Origin: an uncultured Pseudomonadota bacterium
Lineage (GTDB): Bacteria; Pseudomonadota; Alphaproteobacteria; Rs-D84
NCBI GenBank assembly: GCA_902771695.1
Contig: CACXXP010000002.1
Location: 1,958-65,957 of the forward strand
Length of the DNA: 64,000 nt
Direction of reading: 5' to 3'
Each line of letters begins with the position of its first letter. The first letter of the stretch is position 1. Made by a program: the position numbers and the translations under genes. Under the pieces are notes generated by a model. It worked only from the letters and a program-made list of their open reading frames with translations. It did no database searches and had not been told where the DNA came from. This document shows, in pieces, positions 7,530 to 63,362 of this stretch.

Positions 7530-10500
7530 CTACAGGCCAACACAAGCCCCCTTGCGAACAACAGTCCGTATCATTGGACATTGTTCTGCGGTACACGAAG
7601 AATCATTTAATTCGGCATCATTGACCAAATATTGTAACCGCCCAGAACCGCCAAACCTTGATAAATTCTGTTCATACTGCGATTTTACCAGATCCGCGAA
7701 CTGTGACGGCCGCGAACGAACACTAATACAGAATCCCGATGGCGACGGCGCCCCAGAATCAATCAAATTCGATACTTGCTTCATATTGTCATCTAACACA
7801 TTTTTGGCACCAGATACATCGAAAGACTGTGATCTTGGCGTCATAAACAATTTGTTCCAATCCACATCAACAACACCAAGTGTGGTTCTATCATTGCTCT
7901 TGGCGAACCGAGAATTATCAACATTATTGTTCAGTTCCGTCGATTTATTTTTGTTGTTTTTCGAAACCAACAATCCAACCGCGCCACCGATTGCCAATGC
8001 ACCTGCGGTGATTGCTGTGGCCTTTAATCCGATATGATCATTCTTGGCCGGCTGTTGCGGATTTTCCTGGGGTGAACCAGTTATTACCGGTGTTTCGGTC
8101 CCCGTAACAGATGCACTTACCTGACCCGGAATCAGTTCTTCGTTATTATTTTGTTGTTGGTTACCAACACTCGGTTGATCTGGTGTGATAACAGTATTAC
8201 CCGGTGTCGTAACCGTATTACTTGGCGTTGTAACCGTGTTACCTGGTGTCGTAACCGTATTACTTGGCGTTGTAACCGTGTTACCCGGTGTCGTAACCGT
8301 ATTACTTGGCGTTGTATTATGCGATGTTGCTGGGACAACCGCAGGCGCACCACCAGCCGACGGATTCGGCACTTCTTCAGTATTTTCTGGTTCAACAATA
8401 GTGACTGTAACCTCCCCAGGAACAAATTCTTGTGGTTTTTCAAAGCAAATTGGTATTCTTAAACCATTGGTTGCGGTTTTGTTTAGATACTGTCCGTCGC
8501 GTGCCAATGCCAAAGCCGCGGCAACAGATGGAGCAACCGCCTTTTCAAAATCAAAGGTTATTTTTGTACCAACATTGAATGTTTTATATATCGGTTTGCT
8601 GCTTGTAATAACATCAAAAACTCCCGCCATTTTTGACCCATCCGCAAAAGTAACAACCGACTGATACCCTTTACCCGTAACAGATTTAACTGTTTGCAAT
8701 TTACTATAAACCTCTGCTTCGGTTTTTAAACCTTTAAATGCTGGTACATTTTCTGTCAGAATTTTAACCGTAGCCTCTTTCACGGTTCCTGGGCCTGTAC
8801 CAATTGGCGCAGTTCCCAACGAGGTAAAGCCAGCACCTCTTAATATAGAATTTCTACTGTATTGTCCACCACCATCTTCAACAACCATCTGTAAACTATT
8901 TTCTATCTTAAGGTTTCTTTTACCTGATCCCCAACTTGAAGACACAGCATACGTGTTTTTCTCGACATGTTCACCAATCTTTTTAGTTACCGTTTGTTCT
9001 GTTTTCTGTAATTTACCTGCCACCATCATCACTGTGCCGATTAATTGCAACGCAACACCAATCTGGCGAACATATTGCCATGGCATCTTTTTTGTTACCA
9101 ATGTGCAATTTACTGGATCAAATAATTTTTCATCTTGCATAAAATTCAACCAGAAATCTGACTCAGCAGGAATCATATTAAATATTCTACTTAATATTTC
9201 ATCTGTTGCGCTTTGCTCTGTCGGATTAAATTCCTTCTGATACGACTTCATTTCTTGTGCAAATGTATTGATAAAATCTACAGCACATTTTTCTTGGGCA
9301 CTGCCCGAAAGAGCCGCACACTTTTCCGCCGGTGGTACATATTTTTGATAAATCCATGTCATTCTAATGTCGGCCACAGTTTCCATTGTCGCACCAACTG
9401 CATAAATTAACATTGGTGCCGTTGCACCCTCACTAATAACCGTCAACACAACACCAGCACCAATCAATGCCGTAGTCTTGATAACTTTAATGGCTTTATC
9501 GGTATTGGTAACCCTGGCAGAATCTGGCAACAGGCATGTTTCACCCGTCCATTCTGGCAGTGTACAATCTGAACAAGCTTCTTTCAGCGCTGTGGCAAGT
9601 TTCTTGCAATTTTCTTCCCCAAGCATAACACAATTTGTACCGTCAAAAATACCTTGTTCAGTTATACATTCAAGTCCCGCCAACCCAGATTTCAATCTAC
9701 GTAACTCCGCAACAGCATCTGTGCTTAAACTGGTAAATACCATATCAACCTTTTTGCCGTCAACTGTACAACGTATAACATCATACCTATCGGCATTCAG
9801 GGTCACACTAGTTCCAGGTATTTGCATTCCACCAGACAACACACGTCTGGCCATCGTATCACATTCAACCTTGACATTTGGCGCATTTAATGTCGTACGC
9901 GCATATTCACGAATACGGTTTATAACTTCTTCATTATTACTTATCTGTACCCTAGCAAATGCGTAATTATTAAACCCATACGGTGCAAGTTCATTAACCA
10001 ACGAACTTTCTGATGTACTAAGCGCCGACACTACACAAAGATCGCGCATTGGTGCCGCATTTAAAAAATCACTCGCAGAGTCAATTTTTGACAAATCCAA
10101 TCGACGACGATTAGGATCGATGAGACTGTTTTCATCACCAACAGCATCCAAATTTTGTAAGAACGCGGCACCATCTCTGGCCACCCTAACAACAGACGTG
10201 TTTCTGGCACGGCCTGGAACCAATCCGGCTTGCACACCACCAAATTCTTTGGCCCAGGCGGTCATCTGATTACATGCAGATGTTCCATATTTAATATAAT
10301 CACGCATGGTAATAGTATTATTGTTATCACCATCTTTCACACAAACGGCCCCATGTCCAGAACCAGTATCAAACGTGGCAATCCATGCACCATGGTGCGC
10401 TTCACCAATTCTACACAAAATTTCCGCATTATTAAGAACCTCGTCATAACTGGTTTCCAAAAGTCCTTTGGCAACGGATATTCCGCCAAACTGTACGGTA

Positions 10501-13339: not shown

Positions 13340-14578
13340 ATGAAAATAAAACCATTTGCGGGCGTTCGTCCACCAAAAGAAATTGCATCAGAGGTTGCAT
13401 CACGTCCATATGATGTTCTGAATTCAGTGGAAGCCAAGGCCGAGGCTGGTGAAAAATCGTTACTGCATATTATCAAACCAGAAATAGATTTTGACCCAAT
13501 CGCCGATGAACACAGCCAACAGGTCTATGACAAGGCCGTTGAAAATTTCAAACTGTGGCAAGACCGCGGTTGGTTGGTCCAAGATGACAAAGAAATGTAT
13601 TATATCTATGCACAAACAATGGATGGTCGGACACAGTACGGTTTGGTTGCCGCGGCAAATGTTGATGACTATATGACCGGCAAAATTAAAAAGCACGAAT
13701 TGACCCGTAAAGACAAAGAAGATGATCGTATGATTCATGTTCGCATCCAAAATGCAAATATTGAACCGGTGTTCTTTGCATATCCAGATGTTGCCGAAAT
13801 GAACGAAATTGTTGAAAACTTTGTTAAAAACAATGCCCCTGAATATGACTTTGTTGCCGCCGATGGTTTCGGTCATAAATTCTGGGCTATTCGTGACGAT
13901 GCCATTAACGCACGCATAACCGAAATATTCAAGAATATTCCGGCAATGTATGTCGCAGACGGTCACCACAGAACCGCCGCCGCGGCACGTGTTGGTGCAG
14001 AAAAACGCGAACAAAATCCAAATCACACCGGTGCGGAAGAATATAACTATTTCTTGGCCGTTATATTCCCAGAAAGCCAATTGAAAGTTATTGACTATAA
14101 CCGCGTTGTCAAAGATTTGAACGGTCTGACCCCAGAAGAATTCTTGGCAAAATTGTCTGAATCTTTTGATGTTGTGGAAATGGGAACCGAAATATACAAA
14201 CCAACAAAATTGCATAACTTTGGAATGTATCTGGGTGGCAAATGGTATTCGTTGACCGCAAAGCCCGGCACATACAACGACAACGATCCAATTGGGGTTT
14301 TGGATGTGACCGTTCTGTCCAATTTGGTATTTGATAAAATATTGAACTTGGGCGATTTGCGTACCAGCAAACGTATAGATTTCGTTGGCGGTATTCGTGG
14401 TCTGGGTGAATTACAAAAGCGCGTAGATAGCGGCGAAATGGTCGCGGCATTTGCGCTGTACCCGGTGACAATGCGTCAGATTATTGACATCGCCGACACC
14501 GGTAACATCATGCCACCAAAGACAACATGGTTTGAACCAAAACTGCGCAGTGGTTTGGTCATTCACAAATTGTCGTAA
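13340..14578 (+). CDS. DUF1015 family protein
   Basis: 412 aa. N-terminus MKIKPFAGVRPPKEIASEVASRPYDVL and the internal YVADGHHRTAAA are the hallmark motifs of this family. Confidence 0.8.
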   Translation: MKIKPFAGVRPPKEIASEVASRPYDVLNSVEAKAEAGEKSLLHIIKPEIDFDPIADEHSQQVYDKAVENFKLWQDRGWLVQDDKEMYYIYAQTMDGRTQYGLVAAANVDDYMTGKIKKHELTRKDKEDDRMIHVRIQNANIEPVFFAYPDVAEMNEIVENFVKNNAPEYDFVAADGFGHKFWAIRDDAINARITEIFKNIPAMYVADGHHRTAAAARVGAEKREQNPNHTGAEEYNYFLAVIFPESQLKVIDYNRVVKDLNGLTPEEFLAKLSESFDVVEMGTEIYKPTKLHNFGMYLGGKWYSLTAKPGTYNDNDPIGVLDVTVLSNLVFDKILNLGDLRTSKRIDFVGGIRGLGELQKRVDSGEMVAAFALYPVTMRQIIDIADTGNIMPPKTTWFEPKLRSGLVIHKLS

Positions 14579-14634
14579 TTAGTGGTTAGTATTAGTGAAT
14601 AGTAAAAACGGTTGCAATCGCAACCGTTTTTTTT
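14579..14634 (+). terminator. 3-prime cassette copy a: TAGTG repeats plus AACGGTTGC hairpin terminator (bidirectional)
   Basis: TAA TTAGTGGTTAGTATTAGTGAATAGT AAAAACGGTTGC-AATC-GCAACCGTTTTTTTT. It also sits 5 nt from the stop of the convergent gene at 14637. Confidence 0.8.
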
Positions 14635-31424: not shown

Positions 31425-31488
31425 AAAAAAACGGTTGCGATTGCAACCGTTTTTACTAATCACTTACACTAACCACTATCACTAATGA
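31425..31488 (-). terminator. 3-prime cassette copy b after rplQ
   Basis: Gene-sense read: TAA TCATTAGTGATAGTGGTTAGTGTAAGTGATTAGT AAAAACGGTTGC-AATC-GCAACCGTTTTTTT. The hairpin is identical to copy a. Confidence 0.8.
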
Positions 31489-58170: not shown

Positions 58171-58257
58171 AGCATATATTATATCACAAATTAGTGTCAG
58201 CAGGTAGTATTAGTGTGGTAAATTAAAACCGCCGGATAAACCAGCGGTTTAAATTTA

Positions 58258-58507: not shown

Positions 58508-60196
58508 ATGTTCGCAACAAAGTTTTTATCAAAAGAAAAATTTACGGACTATGCGGATTATATCGCAAACGCACGGCCAATTGTCCCGGAACACTTTAAT
58601 TTTGCGTATGATGTTATTGACGAAATCGCCCGCGAAACCCCGGATAAATTGGCTATTTTATGGGTGGACGATTCGGATACAAAAATCAAGTTTACTTTTT
58701 CCGACCTGTCACGCATGTCAAATGCGGCGGCAAATTTTTTGACGTCACGCGGATTAAAGAAAGGTGACACAGTTCTGTTATTCTTGCGTCGCAGATGGGA
58801 ATATTGGATTTTAATGATGGCAATGCACAAAATCGGTGTGATTCCAATCCCATCAACCAATCAATTAAAATCCGAAGATATTAAATATCGAATTGATACC
58901 GCAGAATCGCGTGCAATTATCGCATTTGATGATGGGCATATTATAAACGAAATTAAAACCGCAATTGGCGATTCGGACGTGATGCTGATTTCCAATGACG
59001 AAGTGGCAAATTCCCTTAAGACCATGCCAGAAACATTGGAACGCATACCAAATGAAAATACAGATACCATGGTAATTTATTTTACATCGGGAACAACTGA
59101 TATGCCTAAAATGGTTGCACATAATTATATGTATCCATTGGGGCATATAAACACTGCACTGTTCTGGCAACGCCTGCATGATGGTGATATTCATTTTACA
59201 CTTTCCGAATCAGGTTGGGCAAAATGTTCATGGGGAAAAATGTACGGTCAATGGTTGGCGGGTGCAACAGTGTTTGTATTTGATGTTGCGGGTATCTTTA
59301 CTGCGCATGATTTATGGCATGTAATTTCTGACAATCATGTCACGTCTTTCTGTGCGCCACCAACAGTGTATAAAATGCTGATTCACGCAGACGTATCAAA
59401 ATATGATATTTCATCATTGGTCAAGGCAGATGTCGCGGGCGAAGCATTAAACCCCGAAGTTTACGAACGTTTCTTTAATATGACGGGAATAAAATTACAC
59501 GAAGGTTTTGGACAAACGGAAACAACAATTCAATTGTTTACAAACGAATGGATTGAACCCAAACCAGGCAGCATGGGTATGCCTGCGGCGGGATGGGATA
59601 TAAAATTACTGGACGAAGGCGGCCGTCCAATTACCGAAGACGGCAAAGTCGGTGAAATTTGTATATCATTAGAAAAAGGCCGTCCGGTTGGTATGTTTCA
59701 AAAGTATCACAAAAACGAAAAACTGACTGAACAGGCATTTCGTGACGGATATTATCACACTGGCGATGTTGCATATCGCGATGCCGATGGGTATTATTGG
59801 TTTGTTGGCCGTAATGACGATTTGATTAAATCATCTGGGTATCGTATCAGTCCGTTCGAGGTTGAAAGTGTATTGATGGAACATCCGGCGGTTCGCGAAG
59901 TTGCGGTAACGGGTATCCCCGACCCATCACGTGGCCAGGCCGTCAAGGCAACAATCGTTCTGAACAAATATTTCCAAGGAAACGATATTTTAATTCGCCA
60001 ATTACAAGATCATGTTCGCAATCGCACCGCGGCATATAAATACCCGCGTGTAATTGAATTTGTGGACAGTTTGCCAATGACAATATCAGGCAAGATTCGC
60101 CGTGCACTGATACGAACATTGGACAGTGCAAAGAAGTCAATTATTGAACCGGTGAAAAACACTATCGGTTTAGGTAAAGACGAAGAAGAAAAATAA
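58508..60196 (+). CDS. AMP-forming acyl-CoA synthetase (medium-chain/ACSM-like)
   Basis: Start moved to ATG 58508 (MFATKFLSKEKF...). AMP-binding motif YFTSGTTDMPK, YHTGDVAYRDADGYYWFVGRNDDLIKSSGYRISPFEVES, and GKIRR. Confidence 0.85.
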   Translation: MFATKFLSKEKFTDYADYIANARPIVPEHFNFAYDVIDEIARETPDKLAILWVDDSDTKIKFTFSDLSRMSNAAANFLTSRGLKKGDTVLLFLRRRWEYWILMMAMHKIGVIPIPSTNQLKSEDIKYRIDTAESRAIIAFDDGHIINEIKTAIGDSDVMLISNDEVANSLKTMPETLERIPNENTDTMVIYFTSGTTDMPKMVAHNYMYPLGHINTALFWQRLHDGDIHFTLSESGWAKCSWGKMYGQWLAGATVFVFDVAGIFTAHDLWHVISDNHVTSFCAPPTVYKMLIHADVSKYDISSLVKADVAGEALNPEVYERFFNMTGIKLHEGFGQTETTIQLFTNEWIEPKPGSMGMPAAGWDIKLLDEGGRPITEDGKVGEICISLEKGRPVGMFQKYHKNEKLTEQAFRDGYYHTGDVAYRDADGYYWFVGRNDDLIKSSGYRISPFEVESVLMEHPAVREVAVTGIPDPSRGQAVKATIVLNKYFQGNDILIRQLQDHVRNRTAAYKYPRVIEFVDSLPMTISGKIRRALIRTLDSAKKSIIEPVKNTIGLGKDEEEK

Positions 60197-60256
60197 GTGA
60201 ACAGTGGTTAGTGTTAGTGGTTAGTAAAAACGGTTGCGTTTGCGACCGTTTTTTTG
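60197..60256 (+). terminator. 3-prime cassette copy c after the acyl-CoA synthetase gene
   Basis: TAA GTGAACAGTGGTTAGTGTTAGTGGTTAGT AAAAACGGTTGC-GTTT-GCGACCGTTTTTTT. Confidence 0.8.
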
Positions 60257-60272
60257 TTCCAGATTGAACCAT

Positions 60273-60387
60273 CCCCTTCTTACAAAGAAGGGGTGGACGC
60301 GAAGCGGACGGGGTAGTTGTTGTGGGCATGTTATATTAACCACTACCCCCCGGCATGCTATGCCGTACCCCTTCGCAGGCGAAGGGG
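60273..60387 (-). repeat. G/C-stem structured repeat, copy 1 (about 115 nt)
   Basis: Hairpin 1: CCCCTTCTT-ACA-AAGAAGGGG. Hairpin 2: GGGGTAGT...ACTACCCC. Hairpin 3: CCCCTTCG-CAGG-CGAAGGGG. Alignable with 61364-61514. Confidence 0.7.
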
Positions 60388-60409
60388 ATGAAATTGCCAT
60401 GACAAAAAG

Positions 60410-60435
60410 GAACGGTTGCATTCCCGCAACCGTTC
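60410..60435 (-). terminator. bidirectional hairpin terminator after the 275-aa gene
   Basis: GAACGGTTGC-ATTCCC-GCAACCGTTC, flanked by A-runs and T-runs. Same stem sequence as the cassette hairpins. Confidence 0.7.
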
Positions 60436-60503
60436 TTTTTTTCTGTTGCCCCGATAAAATCGGAGAACCCACCACATCCAGTGTCAATAAAGGGATTCCA
60501 ACA

Positions 60504-61331
60504 CTAGTGAAAGATAGGCACAAGCCCACCACTTACACAATTACCATTCGAACACGTCTTGCCACTACCACAATCGCTATTTTTTGCACAACCACATTCA
60601 CCCGCACCGGTAAGCACACCGGCACAACATTCCGATGGCACCGTTGCACTTGCTCCCATTGGTTTACACATATACGCCGTTTGATCAACTATTGTCCATA
60701 ACGTGCAACCATCATCTTGATTTGCACATTGCAATTTTGTCGTATCCGTTGTTGGTAAATTTGTAAATCTCTCGTTCAATGCCGATGCGGTTATTAATTT
60801 ATTCGCATCATCCACACTATAACTTCCACCAGTATATAATTGGCGTTCACCAATTACACCCCCTCCCGCCACATTTGTATATGTTATTACCGTATTACCA
60901 ATATTCGTGTTCGACGGGTTCGCCGCAGGAATTTTTACCTGGCGCGTGGCGATTTGATCATCCACATACGGTTTTGATGTCGTTGCAGCATTCGATACGA
61001 ATACCGCCGTAAAAGTCAACCTATTATTCTCATCACAACCACCCACGTTATATGACTCACCAGGATATGCAACTGGACTAAACATGGTTTCGTTACTCAC
61101 ATTTGCTGTTACCGCCCAATGGCTAAATCGACTGCCTGACTTGCTGCATACTGTATTTTCTGGAATTGTTCTTATATAATAATCAGTGTTATAAACAATT
61201 TCATAATGACCAGCTACTCCACTCCCATCATCACAATCATAGTCTACATAACATGTATACTGAAACCCGCCAAACGCCCCCGTTGTATGAATCAGGGCAA
61301 CCACGCCGAATAACATTAATAATTTTTTCAT
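60504..61331 (-). CDS. secreted protein (275 aa) with Cys-rich C-terminus, paralogue of 61522-61947
   Basis: Signal peptide MKKLLMLFGVVALIHTTGAFG. Shares the core YVDDQIATRQVKIP...GERQLYTG...DANKLITASAL...KLQCANQDDGCTLWTIVDQTAY. Ends with CCAGVLTGAGECGCAKNSDCGSGKTCSNGNC. Confidence 0.6.
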   Translation of the reverse strand: MKKLLMLFGVVALIHTTGAFGGFQYTCYVDYDCDDGSGVAGHYEIVYNTDYYIRTIPENTVCSKSGSRFSHWAVTANVSNETMFSPVAYPGESYNVGGCDENNRLTFTAVFVSNAATTSKPYVDDQIATRQVKIPAANPSNTNIGNTVITYTNVAGGGVIGERQLYTGGSYSVDDANKLITASALNERFTNLPTTDTTKLQCANQDDGCTLWTIVDQTAYMCKPMGASATVPSECCAGVLTGAGECGCAKNSDCGSGKTCSNGNCVSGGLVPIFH

Positions 61332-61363
61332 CTCTCGTTCCTTTTATTTATCTTTTCCGCCGT

Positions 61364-61514
61364 CCCCTTCTTATCGGGCCCCGCAAAATTTGAAAAATTT
61401 TGTGGGTGATTTTAAAGAAGGGGTGGCACACGTAGGGTGGCGGGGTAGTTATCCATAGCCCTTTTACCACTACCCCGCAACATGCTATGCCGCACCCCTT
61501 CGCCAGCGAAGGGG
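61364..61514 (-). repeat. G/C-stem structured repeat, copy 2 (about 150 nt, with an extra nested hairpin)
   Basis: Same three stems as copy 1. The hairpin-1 loop is expanded by CCCGCAAAATTT-GAAA-AATTTTGTGGG. Ends 8 nt from the stop of the upstream gene (61522). Confidence 0.7.
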
Positions 61515-61521
61515 ATAGAAA

Positions 61522-61947
61522 TTAATTTCCATTATTATTACTGCTGTTCCCGTATACAGTTTGGTCGTCAATTGTCCACAATGTGCAATCTTGGTTCGCA
61601 CATGTTAGTTTTGATGTCTCGATGGTTGGCAAATGGTTCGCACGATAATCCAATGCATCCGCCGTCACCAATTTATTCGCATCCCCCGATGTATAGGTAC
61701 TTGAACCCGTAAATAACTGGCGTTCACCAATTGTACCCGCCGTTCCAGTGTACATAACAACCGATGTACCCGTGTTTGACGAGTTCGTACCCGATACAGG
61801 TATCTTTGCCTGGCGTGTCGCAATTTGGTCTGTGACATAGTTCACAGATGTCACCGTTTTACGCTGTGCCGGCGTTGGATCCGCCGCAAAAGATGGTAAT
61901 GTGATAATCGCGCCAACAATTGCCGCAATCGTTAATTTTGTATTCAT
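61522..61947 (-). CDS. secreted protein (141 aa), paralogue of the 60504-61331 core
   Basis: Signal peptide MNTKLTIAAIVGAIITLPSFA. Core YVTDQIATRQAKIP...GERQLFTG...DANKLVTADAL...KLTCANQDCTLWTIDDQTVY. An extended -10 TGATATAAT lies at 61990-61982. Confidence 0.6.
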   Translation of the reverse strand: MNTKLTIAAIVGAIITLPSFAADPTPAQRKTVTSVNYVTDQIATRQAKIPVSGTNSSNTGTSVVMYTGTAGTIGERQLFTGSSTYTSGDANKLVTADALDYRANHLPTIETSKLTCANQDCTLWTIDDQTVYGNSSNNNGN

Positions 61948-62058
61948 GGATTGTCCCTCTTACATTTGTTTGTTCATAAGAATTATATCAAATTTTGGGG
62001 TGGCGGGACAAGGGGAAAAAAATTATTGTCAATCAACGTTTCCTATTCGGATTTTTTT

Positions 62059-62114
62059 GGAAAAAAACGGTTGCAAACGCAACCGTTCTTACTAACCACT
62101 AACACTAACCACTA
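62059..62114 (-). terminator. 3-prime cassette copy d after fabF (the fabF TAG stop is part of it)
   Basis: Gene-sense read: TAGTGGTTAGTGTTAGTGGTTAGT AAGAACGGTTGC-GTTT-GCAACCGTTTTTTT. Confidence 0.8.
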
Positions 62115-63362
62115 TTTAACCTTTTTCATAACCAATGATGCATTGGTTCCGCCAAATCCAAATGAATTGGACAATGCGACATCAACCTTGCGTTTTTTCG
62201 CAACGTTTGGAACCAAATCGAAATCACCGACCTCGTCCACTGGGTCATGCAAATTGATTGTCGCCGGAACAATGCCATCACGTATGGCCAATGTACAGAA
62301 TATGGCCTCTACGGCACCGGCCGCCCCCAACAAGTGTCCCGTCATAGATTTCGTGGATGACATACATGCACCCGTTCCACCGAACATATTTTTGACCGCG
62401 GTCAATTCACCCATATCGCCCAGACCTGTCGATGTTCCATGTGCATTAATATAATCGACATCCGCTGGTTTTAATCCCGCATCATTCAATGCCGCCATCA
62501 TTGCACGTGCACCACCTTCGCCACCTTCGGCCGGGGCGGTTATATGATATGCATCACCCGACAGGCCGTATCCGGCAACTTCGGCATAAATTTTGGCACC
62601 ACGGGCAACCGCGTGTTCGTATTCTTCCAGAACCAATATACCCGCACCTTCGGACATAATGAAACCATCACGACCCTTGTCCCATGGACGCGATGCACTT
62701 TCAGGATCATCGTTACGTGTGCTTAACGCCTTCATGGCGGAAAATCCTGCGATACCGATTTTACCAACGGCACCTTCACATCCACCGCAAACCATTATGT
62801 CGGCATCACCATGTTGAATTAAACGGACACCTTCGCCGATACTGTGTGCACCGGTCGCACATGCCGTAACCGTTGCGATATTTGGCCCCTTGAATCCATA
62901 TTTAATAGATATATGCCCCGCCGCCATATTGATAATACATTTTGGAATAAAGAACGGACTGATATGGCGTGGACCATTGTTTGCCAATTCAATACAGTTT
63001 TCATAAATCGTATTCAAACCGCCGATACCACTGCCGACGGAAACACCAATTCTTTCTTTATCGCCGGTATATGTATCCAGCCCTGCATCACGAACGGCTT
63101 CGTCTGCGGCGACAACGCCATACAAAATACATTTGTCCATTTTGCGTTGATCACGTGGTTCAACCACCGCATCCGGATTAAACATTCCCGGTTCATCACC
63201 ACGCACCGGAACACCGGCAATTTGGCACGCCATATCGGCCTCTACTAATTCGTCAACTCTACGAACACCAGATTTTCCGGCCAAAATATTTTTCCATGCG
63301 TATTCAATTCCACACCCCACAGGTGATACAATTCCCATACCCGTGATAACGACTCTTCTCAT
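62112..63362 (-). CDS. fabF: 3-oxoacyl-ACP synthase II
   Basis: Start moved to ATG 63362 (MRRVVITGMGIVSPVG...). Active-site context ATVTACATGAHSIG, INAHGTSTGLGD, and NSFGFGGTNASLV. Confidence 0.93.
   Translation of the reverse strand: MRRVVITGMGIVSPVGCGIEYAWKNILAGKSGVRRVDELVEADMACQIAGVPVRGDEPGMFNPDAVVEPRDQRKMDKCILYGVVAADEAVRDAGLDTYTGDKERIGVSVGSGIGGLNTIYENCIELANNGPRHISPFFIPKCIINMAAGHISIKYGFKGPNIATVTACATGAHSIGEGVRLIQHGDADIMVCGGCEGAVGKIGIAGFSAMKALSTRNDDPESASRPWDKGRDGFIMSEGAGILVLEEYEHAVARGAKIYAEVAGYGLSGDAYHITAPAEGGEGGARAMMAALNDAGLKPADVDYINAHGTSTGLGDMGELTAVKNMFGGTGACMSSTKSMTGHLLGAAGAVEAIFCTLAIRDGIVPATINLHDPVDEVGDFDLVPNVAKKRKVDVALSNSFGFGGTNASLVMKKVK

Follow-up and report, generated by a model that had tools for sequence, protein, structure and literature searches.

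The window studied here is a 64,000-nucleotide stretch (C2:1958-65957; C-numbers denote contigs) of the genome of an uncultured alphaproteobacterium, which is called G000. The G000 assembly comprises 969 kb in 23 contigs, has ~41% G+C and is 93% complete. Four copies of one short module, a to d, lie in the window at the 3' ends of four genes. The names first given to these genes are borne out: a PF06245 (DUF1015) gene lies upstream of copy a, the ribosomal protein L17 gene rplQ upstream of copy b, the gene of an AMP-binding acyl-CoA synthetase-like enzyme (ACS) upstream of copy c, and the ketoacyl synthase gene fabF (PF00109/PF02801; true start at 63362) upstream of copy d. Each copy has two parts. 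The first, the arm, is an array of TAGTG-type units, and the second, the hairpin, is the stem-loop into which the arm points. The positions and orientations that the original prediction gave for the four copies agree with a direct reading of the sequence.

In each copy a run of TAGTG(G/A)(T) units without any C leads from the stop codon into a AAAAACGGTTGC-loop-GC(A/G)ACCGTTTTTTT hairpin, and the junction of array and hairpin, GTTAGTAAAAACGGTTGC, is identical among the copies. Arm a (14580-14604, plus strand; TAGTGGT TAGTAT TAGTGAA TAGTA) starts 1 nt past the DUF1015 stop TAA at 14576-14578. It is followed by hairpin a (14603-14634, plus strand), which consists of an A-tract, the stem AACGGTTGC / GCAACCGTT, the loop AATC at 14616-14619 and a T8 tail, and is terminator-like in both directions. 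Arm b (31454-31484, minus strand; TAGTGA TAGTGGT TAGTGTAAGTGAT TAGTA) lies 4 nt past the rplQ stop at 31491-31489. Hairpin b (31425-31455, minus strand) has the stem and the AATC loop (31442-31439) of hairpin a and ends in a T7 tail. Arm c (60195-60226, plus strand; (T)AAGTGAAC AGTGGT TAGTGT TAGTGGT TAGTA) overlaps the stop TAA of the ACS gene at 60194-60196, and hairpin c, also labelled hp1 (60225-60255, plus strand), reads AACGGTTGC GTTT GCGACCGTT plus T7. Arm d (62090-62114, minus strand; TAGTGGT TAGTGT TAGTGGT TAGTA) supplies the stop codon of fabF, which is the first TAG of the arm (62114-62112) as had been proposed, and runs into hairpin d, or hp3 (62061-62090, minus strand; AAGAACGGTTGC GTTT GCAACCGTT plus T7). 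Read in the sense of the arms, the hairpins form the two loop subtypes recognized at the outset, AATC in copies a and b and GTTT in copies c and d. The AATC loop, in the same orientation relative to its arm, is also present at C6:25545.

The four modules have 12-bp AACGGTTGC stems, 4-nt loops and U7-8 tails, and they lie 25-40 nt past the stop codons. RNA segments of 66-73 nt that hold array, hairpin and tail fold at -18 to -23 kcal/mol with z-scores of -3.8 to -6.2. The individual values are -22.2 kcal/mol for copy a (66 nt, z -6.2), -22.7 kcal/mol for copy b (73 nt, z -5.2), -20.8 kcal/mol for copy c (70 nt) and -18.4 kcal/mol for copy d (67 nt). The modules display the feature that marks an intrinsic terminator, which is a stable stem-loop followed by a U-tract downstream of a gene. 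Judged by this anatomy, the hairpin very likely acts as an intrinsic terminator in both directions. The stem sequence AACGGTTGC occurs 11 times in the window vs. 1.06 times in shuffles, and the array motif TAGTGNTTAGT, counted at up to one mismatch, occurs 10 times vs. 2.1 times; neither count was attained by any shuffle. A search of the window against Rfam found two tRNAs only and no match to the module.

Two further hairpins that the original prediction had listed are present on direct reading. The armless hairpin hp2 (60410-60435) belongs to the same stem family (GGAACGGTTGC ATTCCC GCAACCGTTCC) and lies downstream of a 275-aa gene. A 46-nt segment that contains it folds at -22.9 kcal/mol (z -6.6). 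The degenerate copy at 58191-58250 (plus strand) has an arm at 58191-58219 that follows no stop codon and runs into a hairpin, AAAACCGCCGG..CCAGCGGTTT, at 58226-58250 directly downstream of the minus-strand tRNA-Pro. It folds weakly, with a z-score of -2.5.

Number, placement and polarity of the arrays

A strict pattern finds six arrays in G000, and a looser k-mer scan judged by eye finds ~22. A k-mer control on the reversed sequence outscored the real one, as coding DNA is rich in the reversed k-mers (GGTGAT...). Matches were therefore reviewed by hand, and polarity was tested by folding energy. The arrays are 18-31 nt long and contain 2-5 units, in which the 7-nt units TAGTGGT and TAGTGAT are mixed with the 6-nt unit TAGTGT. 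In 19 of the 22 a long sense open reading frame (ORF) ends close by, at a distance of -28 to +16 nt between its stop and the array start. The bias toward gene 3' ends that was proposed from the four window copies thus holds genome-wide. The closest relative of G000 is G055, whose rplQ is 88% identical. There, 38/63 arms are adjacent to a stop codon, which is TAG in 23 cases. Genes of G000 that adjoin an array end in TAG in 10 of 20 cases, compared with 14% of the ~892 genes of the genome. The arrays donate genuine stop codons, and in at least seven of the ~22 the stop of the gene is the first TAG of the array.

The proposal that the array is fused to one conserved hairpin did not survive the census. 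About half of the ~22 arrays precede AACGGTTGC-type stems, and the remainder precede unrelated stems. There are ~17 hairpins with the AACGGTTGC stem in the genome, and eight of these have no array. Among 133 perfect hairpins this is the largest stem family, narrowly, with 8 members vs. 6 and 6. As a sequence, AACGGTTGC has 55 copies in the 969 kb, of which 20 are in perfect hairpin pairs; the copies outside such pairs are near the shuffle expectation of ~16. A DNA uptake sequence (similar to the DUS and the uptake signal sequence, USS) was considered for AACGGTTGC and rejected, since the copies number 55 and not hundreds to thousands and the excess lies in hairpins.

Polarity was tested by comparing the fold energy of the 50 nt downstream with that of the 50 nt upstream of each array. 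At a threshold of -10 kcal/mol or lower, 12/14 downstream segments qualify in G000 vs. 2/14 upstream segments (p = 0.002), and 50/65 vs. 23/65 qualify in G055 (p = 2e-6). The firm rule is one of polarity: the array, read as TAGTG, runs into a hairpin. Additionally, G000 contains two-armed elements, at C5:33466-33543 and C19:8353-8430, in which a complementary arm lies beyond the hairpin. Such an element is a palindrome that is TAGTG-first on both strands, hence every gene that abuts it sees a sense arm. The sense orientation of the arrays follows from this geometry, in which the arms point inward.

At least 13 of the 22 arrays are in convergent gaps, which make up 18% of all gaps. This placement would suit a role of the arm in the antisense direction, where the repeat reads CACTAAC and is C-rich and G-free. 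It would then act as a Rho loading (Rho utilization, rut) site that halts convergent or antisense leak-through before it reaches the gene. The near-complete lack of C in the sense arrays and the presence of a rho gene in the genome agree with such a role. However, the arrays, at 18-31 nt, are far below the length of the rut sites of E. coli, which extend over roughly 70-80 nt. Units of other congeners, e.g., CAAAGTA, are C-rich on neither strand, and the arrays are dispensable at orthologous sites. A role in Rho loading is highly improbable.

Two side observations concern other repeats of G000. Hairpin pairs with a shared inner stem are located at C5:63568-63591 / 64629-64652 and at C7:7373-7398 / 8153-8177. 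They bracket 0.8-1.1 kb and may be further hairpin-bounded single-gene units. The sequence ATTATATCA(C/T)AAA is among the commonest 12-mers, with 15 copies genome-wide. Its reverse complement is TTTGTGATATAAT, which is an extended -10-like box. The example in the window (58171-58190) is a few bases ahead of a start codon and points to leaders that are very short or missing.

Gain, loss and strain variation

Enterousia congeners (the other G-numbers) allow the history of the module to be followed. The 12-mer TAGTGRTTAGTG is present in 8/25 congeners at 1 to 58 copies each, and in none of 16 genomes from other genera of the order. Downstream of rplQ, 30/30 species have a terminator 4-40 nt past the stop; its stem varies, though a few species have one in common. 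Among these 30 species an array after rplQ is found in G000 only. The array after fabF is likewise restricted to G000, in which the stop codon is the TAG of the array, whereas 26/30 orthologues end in TAA.

The comparison with G055 drew on almost its entire genome, and 18 array sites were aligned with G000. An array is present in both genomes at ~11 sites, where the unit number nearly always differs and the stem usually does. Six or seven of the 18 sites have an array in G000 only. The G000-only sites a, b, d, C6:25545 and C19:8353 all have an arm with a AACGGTTGC hairpin, whereas G055 has an unrelated terminator straight after the stop and no array. Arm and hairpin were thus acquired together on several occasions in this lineage, and the gain as a unit for which the original prediction had proposed to look is seen at five or more sites. 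The description of the module as a dispersed, oriented repeat is also sustained by the identical junction, by the conserved orientation of the loop and by the presence of whole modules where G055 differs. Copy c is a mosaic. Its first units are orthologous to an array of G055, and its 3' units and hairpin match copy d, which suggests ectopic conversion through arm homology.

A conserved element of another kind follows AACGGTTGC hairpins at four loci of G055 (C1:160071, C1:133257, C4:80953, C15:21079). It reads ...ATAATATTTTCGCATTGGTTGAC.., is at least ~110 nt long, contains internal hairpins and is absent from G000. On the opposite strand it resembles a promoter of the form TTGTCA-16-TATAAT that fires into the hairpin.

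Strain alleles of the arrays were read from metagenome contigs of rumen and other gut origin on which the encoded proteins are identical (among them L256 and L253). The rplQ array has 5 or 3 units, while L17, the hairpin and the flanks are identical. The fabF array has 4 or 5 units among strains with identical flanks, and the DUF1015 array is identical in two other strains. Copies c and d, which had been counted as independent reuses of the module, are two arms around a single hairpin in strain L256. In this strain fabF is followed by a TAGTG arm, one AACGGTTGC hairpin and a CACTA arm that meets the ACS gene from the opposite side. The 30-nt hairpin of L256 aligns to hairpin c and hairpin d alike, and the intervening 1.81 kb is missing; hence c and d together correspond to a single two-armed element. 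In G052, G010 and G047 a single terminator separates fabF from the directly convergent ACS, which indicates that the single-terminator arrangement is ancestral.

The strain-specific segment between the arm-plus-hairpin units c and d (60254-62062), which is absent from L256, contains two small minus-strand genes (60504-61331 and 61522-61947), a pair of GC-rich structured repeats and hp2. Neither gene has a match in Pfam. The segment looks like a cassette inserted at the terminator. Assemblies were also seen to break in or beside arrays. L253 ends inside the rplQ array, and on the G055 contigs C6 and C16 fabF and ACS are each at a contig end. Such breaks mean that the repeats limit the contiguity of metagenome-assembled genomes (MAGs).

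These comparisons bear on the proposal that the module is a selected device that combines a translation stop with a transcription terminator. In an adaptive 3'-end cassette, ribosomes that read through or shift frame would be caught by the stops of the array before they could melt the terminator, while transcription would end at the hairpin. In copies a, b and d stop codons are found in all three frames within ~30 nt, compared with 12% of all genes; the arrays are exactly between the stop codon and the terminator, and the module has been gained repeatedly at gene ends. The claim of stops in three frames ahead of the stem was thus right for these three copies and fails for copy c, which has stops in two frames only. 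However, any 7-nt unit that contains TAG stops every frame by arithmetic, and the three-frame stops are a by-product of the repeat geometry and not a conserved safety device. The same gene ends have no array in 29/30 congeners, where a terminator 4-40 nt past the stop suffices. Unit number varies among strains, and old copies have decayed to TAATG and AAGTG variants. Additionally, different units (CAAAGTA, AACAGAG, GTTACTC) hold the same kind of position in congeners. The arm is dispensable, polymorphic and decaying. These facts run counter to the selected combined device of the original prediction, and an adaptive cassette is quite unlikely.

Related arrays and their interpretation

Across a 596-Gb genome collection, 103 stretches contain the exact 24-mer TAGTGGTTAGTGTTAGTGGTTAGT, compared with a chance estimate of ~0.004. 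Only this exact 24-mer was searched across phyla, and the taxon list is thus a lower bound. Most matches are in Enterousia-like MAGs. The others are in Planctomycetota, a Stigonema cyanobacterium, Terriglobales (Acidobacteriota), Latescibacterota, Bacteroidota (Prevotellaceae, Tannerella) and a delta-proteobacterium. The TAGTGGT unit is thus present in at least six phyla. Several stretches outside Enterousia have the same layout of two arms around a core, and the repeat is multi-copy elsewhere too, with 1276 12-mer matches in Stigonema and controls near zero.

Some arms flank genes of the PF05635 family, which encode an Avd-like four-helix bundle. Some 23S rRNA intervening sequences carry a PF05635 / TIGR02436 ORF. 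Such genes are present in 6/41 Enterousia genomes, namely the congeners G006, G044, G020, G042, G014 and G052, and in one Prevotellaceae MAG. All full-length PF05635 genes examined in the congeners, and one in Prevotellaceae, lie between inverted heptamer arms. The arm unit is TAGTGGT in G006, G044 and Prevotellaceae; elsewhere it is CAAAGTA, AACAGAG, AGAGCAT or GTTACTC. The gene was considered as the driver of the arrays and rejected, because the array-bearing genomes G000, G055, G010, G012 and G016 have none. Since G000 and G055 carry arrays without it, the PF05635 gene appears to be cargo and not the driver. A search of the literature, of incomplete coverage, found no published link between four-helix-bundle genes and heptamer arms. 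As a side observation, the PF05635 ORFs of G006 (L147:1465-1842) and Prevotellaceae (L054:3149-3518) read into the flanking arm, in which the CACTAA repeat encodes the C-terminal ends (...TTCTNH / ...TTKTNR) as well as the stop codons.

The arms around PF05635 genes raise the question of sequence-specific recognition. The array would then be a DNA or RNA site for an Avd-like protein or a host factor, and would mark units for processing, recombination or mobilization, with the terminator secondary. The compound unit TAGTGGT TAGTGT is multi-copy in at least six phyla, inverted arm pairs flank the PF05635 genes, and the chirality from arm to hairpin is strict. The protein of G006 and G044, which has TAGTGGT arms, is 40% identical to the TAGTGGT-armed protein of Prevotellaceae and only 25-29% identical to Enterousia copies with other units. 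However, G000 and G055 have 22 and ~60 arrays and no PF05635 gene, three PF05635 proteins that are 56-61% identical carry three different units, and the number and sequence of the units are loose within a genome. Recognition of the array by such a partner is unlikely.

Arms are also found in larger repeats. G006 has a ~110-nt palindrome with a central GC hairpin, and arms serve there as modules of larger repeat families. In G055 nine elements consist of an arm, a 34-nt AT-rich palindromic core and a second arm; they are not found in G000. These elements are one reason to consider a miniature element mobilized by a transposase in trans. It would be either a repetitive extragenic palindromic (REP) element or its REPIN form, mobilized by a REP-associated tyrosine transposase (RAYT), or a miniature inverted-repeat transposable element (MITE), mobilized by an insertion sequence. 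The conserved cores and the arms that resemble terminal inverted repeats fit this origin. So do the mosaic repeat families of G006, the patchy distribution and copy number among congeners, and the location of elements at synteny breaks. GTAG-tagged REPs also donate TAG stops to flanking ORFs (PMC3733652, PMC3116915). Mobilization by a RAYT was rejected because the Y1 transposase family PF01797 is absent from G000; it is absent from 39/40 congeners too, including the array-rich G006, G055, G010 and G012. The foot of the palindrome lacks the GTAG/CGTC tag by which REPs are defined (PMC3733652), and the junction instead reads GTTAGTA-AAAACGGTTGC. Arm length varies, unlike the terminal inverted repeats of MITEs. 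A comparison of seven two-armed elements of G055 with G000 recovered neither a target-site duplication nor a clean empty site, and an autonomous partner element was not found either. Four of the seven have no collinear flank pair in G000 (one flank is unmatched, or the two match different contigs), and at the remaining loci the flanks match inconsistently or other DNA is at the site. A transposase-driven miniature element is improbable.

Two other repeats were seen alongside these. In G055 (e.g., C6:26434, C17:46694 and C8:77077) GC-rich hairpins, ccgtcacgaccgcg...gcgacggg and tcccacttcg...gtggga, are nested in TAGTG arrays with direct arms on both sides. They make up another small family of repeats, for which the arrays seem to be the target. 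In G006 (C8:45500-46900) a 365-nt non-coding unit is repeated three times in tandem, and every copy ends in a CACTA array and the species' own terminator, aaaaatccccc-N4-gggggattttt.

Taken together, the module is probably the local family of a modular, fast-evolving intergenic repeat of the heptamer-repeat class that has spread together with a terminator hairpin. Its arm is a slippage-prone short array of 6-7-nt TAGTG(G/A)(T) units that runs 5' to 3' into a hairpin. In G000 this is mostly a AACGGTTGC stem whose 5' A-tract and 3' T-tract would make it a bidirectional terminator. In a very compact genome, such a repeat may be tolerated only in the short slot that separates a stop codon from the resident terminator, and chiefly where two genes converge. 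The slot could be occupied or replaced harmlessly because the hairpin would terminate transcription and the arm would stop translation in any frame. In this process the module often overwrites the last bases of a gene and donates its TAG stop. The arm and hairpin were copied as a unit to new 3' ends (rplQ, fabF, DUF1015 and at least two more sites), after which the arms expand, contract and decay. Hairpins behind shared arms would be swapped, probably by ectopic conversion, with arms and stems as portable homology. The spread itself may depend on conversion through arm or stem homology or on non-autonomous mobility. The arm as such probably has no selected role.

Several points weigh against this explanation. 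It does not account for the fixed chirality, in which the G-rich arm lies 5' of the hairpin in every case. The near identity of TAGTGGT / TAGTGT across at least six phyla strains neutral drift and hints at sequence-specific recognition. Between G000 and G055 the genes that flank the two-armed element at C5:33466 are 87% conserved and the element itself is more so, at ~93%. The search for a transposase, a target-site duplication or a clean empty site was negative, and termination at the hairpin is read from its anatomy. The first three of these points keep a reading based on recognition of the arm alive. The heptamer arms could be recognition or homology handles of a cross-phylum system in which conserved machinery, specific for sequence and structure, moves hairpin-bounded units. 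We regard this as unlikely. In that case the arms would bracket terminators, MITE-like cores, small GC-rich hairpins and Avd-like genes. The arms of Enterousia would delimit slots that exchange terminators and small gene cassettes between sites and strains, and the 1.8-kb insert that carries two genes and separates c from d would exemplify such an exchange. Both the strict chirality and the near-identical unit of at least six phyla would reflect the machinery.

The arrays also matter for annotation. They rewrite the last codons and the stop of core genes (fabF), replace terminators and break assemblies. Because they alter gene ends and vary by strain, they should be recognized and masked. Heptamer repeats beside stop codons have been noticed since 1990 and are still unexplained. 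G000 offers a small and tractable set, with ~22 copies, dated gains, strain alleles and clear polarity. Together with its congeners, it makes it testable whether arms are inert slippage products, recombination handles or recognition sites for a protein or RNA.

Comparison with known repeat systems

The module shares with bidirectional intrinsic terminators an A-tract, a 9-12 bp stem, a 4-6 nt loop and a T-tract, as well as a location between convergent stops. Unlike an ordinary bidirectional terminator, its stem is common to ~17 sites and travels with a repeat arm. The units with heptamer arms around a PF05635 gene have the same TAGTGGT arms, which are inverted around the gene in G006, G044 and Prevotellaceae. 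In contrast, the arms of G000 enclose a terminator hairpin only, and most copies are one-armed. With REPs, bacterial interspersed mosaic elements (BIMEs) and REPINs the module has in common that it is a short extragenic palindrome at 3' ends, a possible terminator or mRNA stabilizer, and a donor of stop codons, with stems that form families within a genome. It differs from REPs in that its copies are in tens and not hundreds and in that its tandem-repeat arm has no counterpart in REPs.

The closest likeness is to the heptameric repeats. Heptamers of this sort in cyanobacteria, the short tandemly repeated repetitive (STRR) sequences, were reportedly described by Mazel et al. in 1990. Heptameric intergenic simple sequence repeats (SSRs) include GGGAATC in Xanthomonas and GGGGA(C/T)T in Nostoc (Rehm et al. 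2015, PMC4692102). These published heptamers are found within 50 bp past stop codons with the G-rich strand as the sense strand, overlap stops, form convergent pairs and have no known function (PMC4692102). The original prediction recognized no described REP or MITE family in the module. This stands insofar as neither a RAYT nor the GTAG/CGTC tag was found, and needs amending insofar as the module belongs to the published heptamer class (PMC4692102).

There are differences from the published members. TAGTGGT holds at most GG and thus has no G-tract, so that the G-quadruplex feature of GGGAATC and GGGGAYT is lacking. The arrays are short (2-5 units) with 6- and 7-nt units mixed, the array is fused to an intrinsic-terminator hairpin and copied together with it, and the host genome is only ~1 Mb, unlike the repeats and hosts described by Rehm et al. 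(PMC4692102). A link to PF05635 is not mentioned there. The likenesses (PMC4692102) are tandem head-to-tail units of ~7 nt, sense placement within 50 bp past a stop that is at times overlapped, many copies per genome and no known function. Convergent inverted pairs are shared as well (C5:33466-33543, C19:8353-8430, and c with d in L256; many in G055 and G006). Finally, the STRR and heptameric SSR class is characterized by instability of unit number, which is seen here at rplQ, at fabF and at nearly all sites shared with G055.

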